DNA of 56,443 nt from Patescibacteria group bacterium (GTDB lineage Bacteria > Patescibacteriota > Patescibacteriia > CAIXNZ01), in assembly GCA_028714455.1 (NCBI GenBank), contig JAQTMG010000006.1, positions 1-56,443 on the forward strand. The letters run 5' to 3'. A model generated the notes under the pieces. That model was not told the DNA's origin and ran no database searches. It was given only the letters and a program-made list of their open reading frames with translations. The position numbers and the translations under genes were made by a program. Position 1 is the first letter of the stretch. Each line of letters begins with the position of its first letter. Below are positions 44,454 through 49,564 of the stretch, piece after piece.

Positions 44454-44497
44454 AAGCTACGAATTTACGAATCTTTTACAAATATACGAATATTCCC
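44454..44497 (-). repeat. ATTCGTA four-word module abutting the GT2 start codon
   Basis: Minus strand ATTCGTAtATTTGTAaaagATTCGTAaATTCGTAgcttATG. Word starts at 0, 8, 19, 27. Confidence 0.6.
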
Positions 44498-44694
44498 CGC
44501 CGAGCTGTCATGGTGAGTCCTTCGGCAAAATCAGGACAAGCATTAAAGTTTACAGTGAGCGCAGTCGAACTAAACCATCAAGCGAGACGGTTTTCAAACC
44601 ATTTAAAGCATACATAATATAATGATTAAGTTAAAAATATCATTTTGGAGTAAAAATATCAAGATTGAATGGTTATAATTTGGCTAATTTTAAA

Positions 44695-44943
44695 TAAAAA
44701 ATAGCCGGAGTACGATGACTCCGGCTGGCAGCTTTTTTACGAATTGTCTCTTATGTTTCTCCGCGTCAAGGAACATGTGACCCACTTAAGGGCTCTTCGT
44801 CGCTACTTTGTCCGTGGTCCCGCCTAGTTGGGCAAGAGACCTGACCTCGGGCCGGAAAAAGCTGCCGCAAAAATAGTCCGAATTCTAGTCCCCTTCCCCT
44901 TTTTCGGGACTTCCACAAACTTTCGCAACGTTTCGCGAATGGT
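44695..44943 (-). ncRNA. Unclassified structured RNA, about 250 nt, with its own promoter and terminator
   Basis: Consensus promoter just upstream. 5' hairpin UUCGCGA-AACG-UUGCGAA. 11-bp long-range helix GGCAGCUUUUU/AAAAAGCUGCC (44866..44856 with 44737..44727). Terminator AGCCGGAG-8 nt-CUCCGGCU plus U6. Confidence 0.55.
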
Positions 44944-44946
44944 TGC

Positions 44947-44975
44947 ATCTTAGCACAACTTGAAAAAATTGTCAA
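44947..44975 (-). promoter_or_regulatory. Consensus promoter TTGACA-17-TAAGAT for the unclassified RNA
   Basis: TTGACA at 44975..44970, TAAGAT at 44952..44947, 17-nt spacer. Confidence 0.6.
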
Positions 44976-45018: not shown

Positions 45019-45618
45019 TTAGAAATTAAAGTTCAAAGTCGCCTTGTAAACATTGGAGTCCTCGGGCAACTCGCCGTAGGGCTCAAAAGCGTAGTAATAG
45101 TTCAGCTTCAAGCTCAGCTTATCATTGAACGGGATAGTCAGACTCGGTCCAATTTGATAGGACCTTGAGCCTTCATCCTCTACGCTCAAATAATGATAGT
45201 TGCGGCTATCCAGGCCAACTCGCATAAATCCGATTGGATAAGACAGGGAGCCGTAGATGAACAGAGCATCAAAACCGGCATAGTAGTAAAAGCTATCAAC
45301 CAATACCCACTTGCCAGATTTGAAGACTGAATCAGCTCCCGCAAACCAACCACGATCTTGCTCATCGGTTTCAAAACCGTAGCCCGCAAATCCATCAATA
45401 CTGAATTGATCGCTGAACTTATAACCCAAGCCCAATGAAGTGTAGGGAGAGTAGCCAGACATCAGGTTGATAAAACACATATTGCCCAGCAGGCTGAAAT
45501 TATTTTCCAGGTTCCTGCTGACGTTAAGCGAGACTCCCATTTGCGGATTGTCTTCAACCGCCTGAGCTTGAAATGAAACCAACATGGCGAGCGCCAAAAA
45601 TACGATTACCTTTTTCAT
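45019..45618 (-). CDS. Outer-membrane-type beta-barrel protein (OMP_b-brl-like), tentative
   Basis: Signal MKKVIVFLALAMLVSFQAQA. Alternating hydrophobic strands rich in Y/F/G. Ends ...YKATLNFNF with terminal Phe. GAAGGAGAACGACA-ATG SD. Confidence 0.6.
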   Translation of the reverse strand: MKKVIVFLALAMLVSFQAQAVEDNPQMGVSLNVSRNLENNFSLLGNMCFINLMSGYSPYTSLGLGYKFSDQFSIDGFAGYGFETDEQDRGWFAGADSVFKSGKWVLVDSFYYYAGFDALFIYGSLSYPIGFMRVGLDSRNYHYLSVEDEGSRSYQIGPSLTIPFNDKLSLKLNYYYAFEPYGELPEDSNVYKATLNFNF

Positions 45619-45688: not shown

Positions 45689-46924
45689 TCAAACAGCCAA
45701 GTAAATAGGGATATGCAAAATTCTATCAGGAAGTTTTTTGGGTTTCAGAGCCAAACCTTTGGGCTTTATAAATTCCCAAAGACCCGGAGAATCTATTTCT
45801 AGATTTTGCGAAATCATAACTGGCAATTCAAGCCAGTTACTGCCCTGGTCACTTGAGAAATCGTTGATTGGCCCATCTCGCACGTTGCAATCGTGCTTAA
45901 CAACCATTTCAATTCTGGCCTGTCCGTCATAAAAGTGGCTGTTCATTTTACTGGAACTCTTGGCCGCCAGAACGATCACTGGCTGCAAAAGTATTCCCAG
46001 AAGCAGCGACAAATAGGCAATAGCCAATGATTTTTTCATCAGACATGGTGAAATCTCAAACTCGCGCAATTCCTTCAGGGTTTTTTCAAATATCTTGATG
46101 GGCTGGCGAGCCTGGCTGCGCAACCATCTCTCCTCACTTTCCGAAAGCTGATAGGCAATGTGTTTATTTTGTAAAAACCTTACCTTCAACTTTAAGTAGC
46201 GGATTGCTTCAGCCGTATCTTCATGAAGGGGGTAGGTCAAGCACCACCTTGGCCAAAATAAAAGCCTTATGACAAAACGCTTGGGACAAATTATCAACTC
46301 GTCTTTTAAGGATAAGTTATTATATCCCTCATCCTCTTTAAAACGAATTAGAAACATCAGCAGCCAAAACAGCATGAGTTTGAGATAAATAATAGTCAAC
46401 CAACTTATGGCTGCCGTCATAGCTGTTTCAAAATTGAGAATCGTCCTATCAGGATTGTAAATACCATTTCTTTTACCTGCGCGCTCTTGCACCCTCGCGA
46501 TAAAGTCGTCTTTATTCTTATCACCGTAGTTTATTCCGCCGCGTAATAGCAGAAGATTTTGGAGCGGACCATTCTGTGGCGCAGTTAGCCATATGTGATA
46601 TTTGTCTTCAAGATTCATGAGGTTTTCATAGCCACGAAAGTAATCAGTAATAGTAAAGTCTTTTTTTCTTCCCGCTGCTTTTATAATTTCATTGCTTTCT
46701 TCCACGGCTTTTTGCTTACGAATCGCCCAGTCCTCAAATTTGGGACCAGAATATTCTGGCGGCCGATCAAAACTATCGAGCGTGCCAACGTAGCTTGGCC
46801 TGTCAATTTCTTCGCGGATATAAATATAGATATTCAGTCCGCCTAACCAGATAAAAAAGCTTATGGCCAAAAGAATCTTAGGAATCAAGCCATAGTTTCT
46901 CAACCATTTCTGCATATCTTTCAT
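45689..46924 (-). CDS. Hypothetical membrane protein (about 4 TM)
   Basis: 411 aa. ACGGAGGAAGAA-ATG SD. No family recognised. Confidence 0.6.
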   Translation of the reverse strand: MKDMQKWLRNYGLIPKILLAISFFIWLGGLNIYIYIREEIDRPSYVGTLDSFDRPPEYSGPKFEDWAIRKQKAVEESNEIIKAAGRKKDFTITDYFRGYENLMNLEDKYHIWLTAPQNGPLQNLLLLRGGINYGDKNKDDFIARVQERAGKRNGIYNPDRTILNFETAMTAAISWLTIIYLKLMLFWLLMFLIRFKEDEGYNNLSLKDELIICPKRFVIRLLFWPRWCLTYPLHEDTAEAIRYLKLKVRFLQNKHIAYQLSESEERWLRSQARQPIKIFEKTLKELREFEISPCLMKKSLAIAYLSLLLGILLQPVIVLAAKSSSKMNSHFYDGQARIEMVVKHDCNVRDGPINDFSSDQGSNWLELPVMISQNLEIDSPGLWEFIKPKGLALKPKKLPDRILHIPIYLAV

Positions 46925-49270: not shown

Positions 49271-49564
49271 CTATTTTTTCTTTTTGGCGGTTTTTTCTAC
49301 TTTTCTCTCTTTAAAAAACTCAACCATGCTGGTGACACTCTCCACAAACAATTTCATATAGCTGGAAGTGTGCTCTAATTTTTCCTTAAGGGTAAGTAAA
49401 ACCGTTTCCACAAGTTCAATCTTTTTGCGCACATCCGAAGCCAACTTTTTAAACTCCCGCAAAATCATGGCCACGTAATAAATCGCCCAGCTGGTAAAAA
49501 TTGTCAGCCACAAAATGCAGAAGGCGATGACGATGTACAAGATGTCTTTTGTCGAACTAATCAT
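49271..49564 (-). CDS. Small membrane-anchored coiled-coil protein, hypothetical
   Basis: 97 aa, one or two N-terminal TM. Confidence 0.5.
   Translation of the reverse strand: MISSTKDILYIVIAFCILWLTIFTSWAIYYVAMILREFKKLASDVRKKIELVETVLLTLKEKLEHTSSYMKLFVESVTSMVEFFKERKVEKTAKKKK

Follow-up and report, generated by a model that had tools for sequence, protein, structure and literature searches.

A candidate stand-alone gene for a rod-shaped, lineage-restricted structured RNA in Candidatus Falkowbacteria

The genome of a Candidatus Falkowbacteria / Patescibacteria bacterium (assembly GCA_028714455.1, 0.89 Mb in 16 contigs, completeness scored 100%; G000 in our set) raises the question of what is encoded at positions 44695-44975 of contig JAQTMG010000006.1, the whole of which (56,443 nucleotides) was analysed and is called the window here. 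An initial annotation had proposed that a structured RNA of about 250 nt, outside the known families, is encoded here by a gene of its own, and had named a comparison with Rfam, a search for homologs and an analysis of covariation as ways of checking this. The proposal is borne out, as promoter and terminator are kept in seven homologs with differing neighbours and Rfam is negative for the RNA and its homologs. The best explanation as a whole is, with a probability of roughly 0.6, that a stand-alone gene with a strong promoter encodes a new structured non-coding RNA of ~245 nt, restricted to this lineage. The narrower statement that the gene is real and new and that its structured RNA has a rod architecture is very probably correct.

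Gene layout and comparison with Rfam

The gene is read from the minus strand. Its promoter (44975-44947) consists of the hexamers TTGACA and TAAGAT and a spacer of 17 nt that carries a TG extension; it is the top promoter-like site in the region, with 10 of 12 matches, and the terminator of the upstream 199-aa gene stops just before it, both in agreement with the initial annotation. Transcription is predicted to start at ~44942, and the resulting RNA of ~245 nt would end at the U run of a clean intrinsic terminator, which had also been recognized before and whose 9-bp, G+C-rich stem lies at 44726-44703; start, end and abundance of the transcript are predictions alike. The description of the transcript as GC-rich and poor in open reading frames holds as well: the RNA has 51% GC compared with 41% for the genome, and a credible ORF is absent within the gene, the sole long frame (69 aa) beginning inside the promoter. 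A small peptide from an x-A-A-F frame across GGCAGCUUU was considered and rejected, as the members show neither consistent start codons nor conserved peptides. The minimum free energy of the RNA is -83.2 kcal/mol (z = -2.6), and none of 200 dinucleotide shuffles folded as well. From 5' to 3', the proposed order of elements is a short A-rich tail, the rod, RAAG, P3, CAC, the A/C-rich linker, AAAGCUGCC and the terminator, with the following positions in the window:

44975-44947, minus strand: promoter, with the -35 element TTGACA at 44975-44970, the extended -10 TG at 44955-44954 and the -10 element TAAGAT at 44952-44947
44798..44930, minus strand: long imperfect rod of ~39 spanning base pairs in the constrained fold
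44930-44925 with 44803-44798, minus strand: base helix of the rod, CGUUGC:GCGACG, in the constrained fold
44854..44874, minus strand: apical loop of 21 nt, with UUUUU at 44873-44869, then GC, then GGCAGCUUUUU at 44866-44856
44795..44798, minus strand: RAAG element (here GAAG) joining the rod base to P3; GAAG, GGAAG or AAAAG in all eight members of the family
44777..44793, minus strand: hairpin P3, GCCC-UUAAGU-GGGU at 44793-44780, then CAC at 44779-44777; found by RNAalifold in every subgroup
44738..44776, minus strand: A/C-rich linker, poorly conserved, 36-47 nt in the family
44727..44737, minus strand: AAAAAGCUGCC, the 3' strand of the long-range helix P1 and exactly complementary to the apical-loop element
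44726..44695, minus strand: intrinsic terminator with a AGCCGGAGU / ACUCCGGCU stem, a 6-nt loop and a AUUUUUUA tail

When the whole window was compared with the 4,227 families of Rfam 15 at gathering scores, no family was found except five tRNAs. The RNA region gave only noise at E <= 10, and six homologous loci gave nothing relevant at E <= 0.1. The literature consulted contained no account of structured non-coding RNAs in CPR bacteria. The RNA represents a new family with no relative in Rfam 15, of a general kind that is already known, namely the orphan structured non-coding RNAs of bacteria. With the orphan RNAs of GC-rich islands (raiA-motif RNA, OLE, ROOL and GOLLD) it shares the stand-alone gene, a GC content above that of the genome, an intricate conserved fold and the lack of an ORF. 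However, it resembles none of them in sequence or by covariance model, the structure consists of a single rod plus a loop-tail helix, its occurrence is confined to one Falkowbacteria family, and it is much smaller than OLE, ROOL and GOLLD.

Homologs and genomic neighbourhood

Seven homologs were found, five of them in genomes from three genera of one Candidatus Falkowbacteria family and two on metagenome contigs. A DNA search detected the RNA in two other species of the same genus. A first covariance model (R1) added a second genus (G011); it was built from three sequences of one genus, proved too narrow and returned only noise over 150 genomes of the class. A pattern made from both strands of the long-range helix P1 added G012 and G008, which belong to a third genus. 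When promoter and both helix strands were combined in one pattern and applied to metagenome contigs, the two further members L079 and L082 emerged, the sole contigs of this kind to carry one, together with eight chance matches in coding sequence. In a scan of 17 genomes of the order with a second model (R2), the members scored 80-102 bits and the next match 29 bits. Weak R2 matches (<=29 bits) lack promoter and architecture and were rejected, loci L026, L059 and L060 being false positives. Over 400 genomes of the class, true matches to the P1 pattern occur in the family only, the ~20 matches elsewhere corresponding to the rate of a reversed-pattern control, and over genome contigs the pattern returned known Falkowbacteria contigs and chance matches only.

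The members are alike in promoter, P1, P3 and terminator. All eight transcripts would measure 229-263 nt, TTGACA-N14-TGnTA is invariant in the promoters of the seven homologs and the window RNA, and each gene ends in its own terminator at the equivalent place; the terminator sequence varies between genera and is different in G011, G008, L079 and L082. The RNA is single-copy in every genome that carries it. It is absent from the congeners G004 and G013 and from five of the eight genera, and in the RNA-negative genomes of the family the slot is filled by other genes and holds no diverged copy. Such a patchy presence, even within genera, suggests that the RNA is accessory and not essential. Among the public runs, the window stretch is present only in two landfill-metagenome DNA runs, which are possible source samples; no public RNA run was listed as containing it. 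L079:865-1166 (Ga0180437_10001304) and L082:1596-1908 (Ga0315268_10115975) come from samples other than these, and the RNA family is thus not limited to one habitat or study.

The RNA gene resides in a variable slot of a conserved block that is framed by genes for proteins of 97 aa (P0002) and 411-440 aa (P0001), neither of which has a Pfam or NCBIfam match:

45689-46924, minus strand: P0001 family, 411-aa multi-pass membrane protein, in 11 of 14 family genomes
49274-49564, minus strand: P0002 family, 97 aa, with an N-terminal transmembrane helix, a coiled coil and a lysine tail, in all 14 family genomes

A linkage of the RNA to these two proteins was rejected. Both also occur in RNA-negative genomes (P0001 is kept in G003, G005, G006, G010 and G013), so there is no obligate linkage. 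The immediate neighbours of the RNA, including the downstream gene, vary between members, and in most of them a TTGACA promoter of the downstream gene follows directly after the RNA terminator. Varying neighbours and downstream genes with promoters of their own point to a stand-alone gene and not to a leader; a riboswitch or leader would be expected to keep a constant relationship to a downstream gene, and none was found among the members.

Three observations on the surroundings deserve mention in their own right. In the window, the RNA terminator and the downstream glycosyltransferase gene are separated by a 240-nt AT-rich spacer (44454-44694, minus strand) in which only a weak promoter-like site is present, TTGATA-17-TATTTT at 44662-44634. 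The upstream 199-aa gene (45019-45618, minus strand) encodes a protein with a marginal match to the outer-membrane beta-barrel family PF13505 (29.3 bits versus a cut-off of 28.7); the gene is 87% identical in G001 and missing at the equivalent position of the other members. The lineage is generally regarded as devoid of an outer membrane, which makes this score odd. Finally, a leader of ~70 nt precedes a gene for a 351-aa MBL-fold (Lactamase_B_2) protein in G008 (L057:1391-1465, minus strand), and the same leader is situated downstream of the 97-aa gene in G005 (L124), so that it is conserved between two genera. Its consensus reads GGGGGAUYGAUC..UUUAAAUUGGG..AGGAGAUUCUC-AUG, it has a TTGACA promoter of its own and it is without Rfam match at E <= 0.1. 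Possibly, it constitutes an undescribed cis-regulatory RNA.

The rod and the complementarity of loop and tail

Nucleotides ~13-145 of the RNA form one long rod of ~40 bp in all eight members, the arms of which differ in sequence and stay complementary. In the window RNA, helices GUUUGUGG:CCACGGAC, GUCCC:GGGAC, AGGGGAC:GUCUCUU and UUCGG:CCGAG are present in addition to the base helix, and the arm-to-arm duplex has an energy of -36.0 kcal/mol compared with -22.8 kcal/mol for shuffles (p = 0.002). Against dinucleotide shuffles, the eight members yield p values of 0.002, 0.076, 0.006, 0.016, <0.002, <0.002, 0.116 and 0.558, i.e. p <= 0.016 in five of them and weak individual signals for G002, L079 and L082; the combined p of 4e-8 by Fisher's method overstates the significance because the eight sequences belong to one family and are not independent. 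Constrained folds, in which each RNA was folded singly and the invariant loop element was kept unpaired, give a single rod with 36-45 spanning pairs in six of the eight members and with 20-22 pairs in G002 and L079. The base helix next to RAAG varies by subgroup (CGUUGC:GCGACG, UGCUGU:ACAGCA, CCGCGUC:GAUGCGG and others). The rod is interrupted by small, non-conserved internal loops only, and ~100 nt at the 3' end lie outside it. In each of the eight members, the minimum free energy of the sense strand is below that of the antisense strand by 7-20 kcal/mol, and 48 of 288 rod pairs, a sixth, are G.U pairs. Sense-strand stability and the share of G.U pairs both indicate that the structure is selected at the RNA level, on the strand of the promoter.

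The arms also covary. Identity in the cross-genus alignment is ~53%, and consensus rods were obtained within subgroups, for which the alignment can be relied on: the rod of subgroup g7 comprises 42 pairs, 13 of them compensatory, with 79% paired compared with 33-46% for slid strands, while that of subgroup g3 comprises 28 pairs, three of them compensatory, with 100% paired compared with 24-48%. It should be noted that full-length RNAalifold runs on the subgroups miss the rod, since P1 competes with it and pseudoknots are not representable. Three helices are recovered by alignment-based folding everywhere, namely P1, P3 preceded by RAAG, and the terminator. P3 is paired in 81% and contains two pairs that are changed on both sides. 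No conserved helix was found in the linker between P3 and the tail, which is probably largely single-stranded.

Several details of the initial fold have to be revised in the light of the homologs. A 5' hairpin UUCGCGA/UUGCGAA is indeed possible in the window sequence, but it is absent from the closest homolog, G002, and its 3' half (CGUUGC) pairs with GCGACG instead, in the conserved base helix of the rod. Two helices that had been proposed to cross each other, GUCAGG/CCUUGAC and GUCUCUU/AAGAGAC, are not conserved; within the rod, GUCUCUU pairs with AGGGGAC and CCGAG with UUCGG. A pseudoknot between the 5' region and the centre was also considered and rejected, as p values for single sequences range from 0.03 to 0.5 and a control with other 9-mers was not significant; the helix in question is the nested base of the rod.

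The rod is capped by an apical loop of 16-23 nt that contains an invariant U-tract and GGCAGCUUU; the UUU and GGCAG-UUU columns do not vary in alignment A6. The exact complement of the loop element, AAAGCUGCC, follows ~115-135 nt downstream and adjoins the terminator in every one of the eight members. In the window RNA, this complementarity extends over 11 bp (GGCAGCUUUUU/AAAAAGCUGCC, 44866-44856 with 44737-44727). The long-range helix of the initial annotation is thereby retained as a conserved complementarity, but not as a simple closure of a 118-nt domain, its 5' strand being located in the apical loop of the rod. P1 as aligned consists of 10 pairs, with 94% of cells paired compared with 43-67% for slid strands. 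Six of the 10 pairs never vary; a compensatory change from C-G to U-A occurs in G002 and a change from G-C to G.U in two members. As P1 is almost invariant, the case for pairing rests on conserved complementarity, and pairing between molecules or with a target is equally possible on this evidence.

Possible modes of action

Within one molecule, loop-tail pairing would generate an H-type pseudoknot with the rod as stem 1 and the loop-tail helix of 9-11 bp as stem 2. Loop 1 would correspond to the U-tract (6-10 nt), loop 2 would measure 0-2 nt, and loop 3 would be made up of RAAG, P3 and the A/C-rich linker, which would have to run back along the rod. The complementarity of the loop to a downstream strand and loop lengths suitable for coaxial stacking are both found; the lengths given for loop 1, stem 2 and loop 2 apply to the six members whose apical loop is compact. 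We consider this intramolecular pseudoknot probable, judging from the sequences of the family. In such an arrangement the U-tract would lie parallel to an A-tract in stem 2, and major-groove U.A-U triples could possibly form, a suggestion derived purely from sequence pattern and topology; they would explain why the U and A residues at these positions never vary. Triples of this kind occur in the core pseudoknot of telomerase RNA, in the SAM-II and preQ1-II riboswitches and in ENE elements. The topology is the same in these triple-helix pseudoknots: stem 1 is followed by a U-rich loop 1, the 3' strand of stem 2 contains an A-tract, and loop 2 is very short. In the RNA studied here, however, a rod of 40 bp takes the place of stem 1, and loop 3, with ~60-70 nt, contains a hairpin of its own; there is no homology, and the comparison serves as a working analogy. 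The RNA would then make a closed particle, resistant to nucleases and active in trans, and a protein-binding or scaffold function would fit it better than antisense regulation. Such a function is proposed tentatively. CsrA (PF02599) and Hfq (PF17209), the partners of CsrB/RsmZ-type protein sponges and of Hfq-dependent sRNAs, respectively, were not found in the genome.

Antisense RNAs usually present their seed in an apical loop, and the RNA could accordingly be a trans-acting, base-pairing sRNA whose loop, with its U-tract and the YUNR-like kissing loop GGCAGCUUU, is the seed for AAAGCUGCC-like sites in mRNAs, the 3' tail being an anti-seed that masks or regulates it. An invariant loop in an RNA that otherwise diverges to ~53% identity would suit this idea, as would the lineage-specific, patchy distribution, which is typical of regulatory sRNAs. 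However, our search of this genome for trans targets by complementarity gave nothing convincing: there is no extended complementarity to any start region, the best match comprises 15 nt in the middle of an ORF (E = 0.17), and the 9-mers of loop and tail occur at chance frequency genome-wide. The lack of Hfq and a 40-bp rod that is far beyond the needs of a seed carrier also argue against this explanation, which we regard as unlikely.

The same complementarity could serve self-assembly, the loop of one molecule pairing with the tail of another to yield head-to-tail dimers, closed rings consisting of RNA only or larger assemblies. Two invariant, exactly complementary elements of 9-11 nt are held apart by a stiff rod ~110 Å long, one at either end, and an intramolecular helix requires that a linker of 36-47 nt spans the entire length of that rod. 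According to recent cryo-EM work, several large bacterial non-coding RNAs (OLE, ROOL, GOLLD and raiA) reportedly form homo-oligomers, and these would provide a precedent. If assembly took place, the RNA would be a small counterpart of the quaternary assemblies of OLE, ROOL and GOLLD, and a U.A-U triplex would lock the joints. Yet the loop lengths of 6-10 and 0-2 nt fit a classical intramolecular H-type pseudoknot and loop 3 can span the rod, so that we judge self-assembly to be rather improbable.

6S RNA is a widespread housekeeping RNA that binds the sigma70-RNA polymerase holoenzyme and templates pRNA, and no match to the 6S family (ssrS, RF00013) is present anywhere in the genome. An RNA of the 6S type, bound to the holoenzyme through mimicry of an open promoter, would fill this gap, and the likeness of the two is evident in a strong promoter, seeming abundance, a rod-like shape and a roughly suitable size (6S RNA comprises roughly 200 nt). 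Still, neither the RNA (at E <= 10) nor its homologs match any 6S family, a closing stem of the 6S type between the 5' and 3' ends is lacking, and the fold has small internal loops in place of a large conserved central bubble. The RNA differs further by its additional 3' domain of ~100 nt outside the rod and the loop-tail pseudoknot, and its absence from G004, G013 and five of eight genera is not what a global regulator would show. A 6S-like function is therefore very unlikely.

The DNA that encodes the rod amounts to a long imperfect inverted repeat, and the RNA gene sits in a variable slot and occurs patchily, features that would befit a transcribed remnant of a mobile inverted-repeat element such as a MITE or a hairpin-ended cassette; a leader or attenuator that acts in cis on the downstream gene may be considered alongside. 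Both are hardly credible in view of one copy per genome, the lack of flanking repeats and of a transposase, a strand-specific structure rich in G.U pairs, covarying arms, conservation of promoter and terminator across genera, and differing downstream genes with their own promoters right after the terminator.

A divergent SRP (4.5S) RNA, RNase P RNA or tmRNA, suggested by short look-alike fragments and by a genome without any match to SRP RNA, can be dismissed, as canonical genes for RNase P RNA (C5:22166-22607, 168.7 bits) and tmRNA (C10:5142-5490, 156.5 bits) reside on other contigs, ARAGORN finds no tmRNA in the window, and SRP RNA requires Ffh, which is not encoded in the genome and neither is FtsY. 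The resemblance of the fragments to RNase P CR-I, SRP helix 8 and the 5' end of tmRNA, noted by eye in the initial annotation, is due to chance, and the SRP-like ones are meaningless in a lineage without any SRP. Bacterial SRP RNA is likewise a single long hairpin rod with internal loops, and near the base, the RNAs of G000 and G002 contain an internal loop of the AGUA/GAA type that is reminiscent of loop-E motifs. On the other hand, the GNRA tetraloop that caps domain IV and the loops of that domain are absent, the apical loop with its U-tract and GGCAGCUUU being found instead, and neither RF00169 nor RF01854 is matched genome-wide or on the RNA region.

The state of the SRP in these organisms is an observation of its own: 4.5S RNA, Ffh and FtsY are not detectable in G000 or in any of the sampled Patescibacteria genomes. 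In G000, searches with PF00448 (SRP54 GTPase domain), PF02978 (M domain) and TIGR00959 (full-length ffh) were all negative, tblastn with E. coli Ffh gave a best E of ~1, and no frame joins a G1 motif with a G3 or G4 motif of SRP GTPases. Ffh and FtsY were also not found in 40 relatives from the class or in a phylum sample of 120 near-complete genomes, both of which gave only weak P-loop matches of <=26 bits. Nelson and Stegen found both ffh and ffs undetectable in Parcubacteria (PMC4508563). The sampled genomes suggest that loss of the SRP may extend through the phylum Patescibacteria.

We thus return to a stand-alone gene for a new structured RNA as the favoured reading. Despite their tiny genomes, CPR bacteria retain GC-rich genes with strong promoters whose folded RNA products are in no database. 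Each such RNA is likely to be part of a ribonucleoprotein or to represent an RNA machine, in organisms that cannot yet be grown alone. A rod of 40 bp and an invariant loop complementary to the tail of the same RNA make the molecule described here well suited for structure determination and for inclusion in Rfam.
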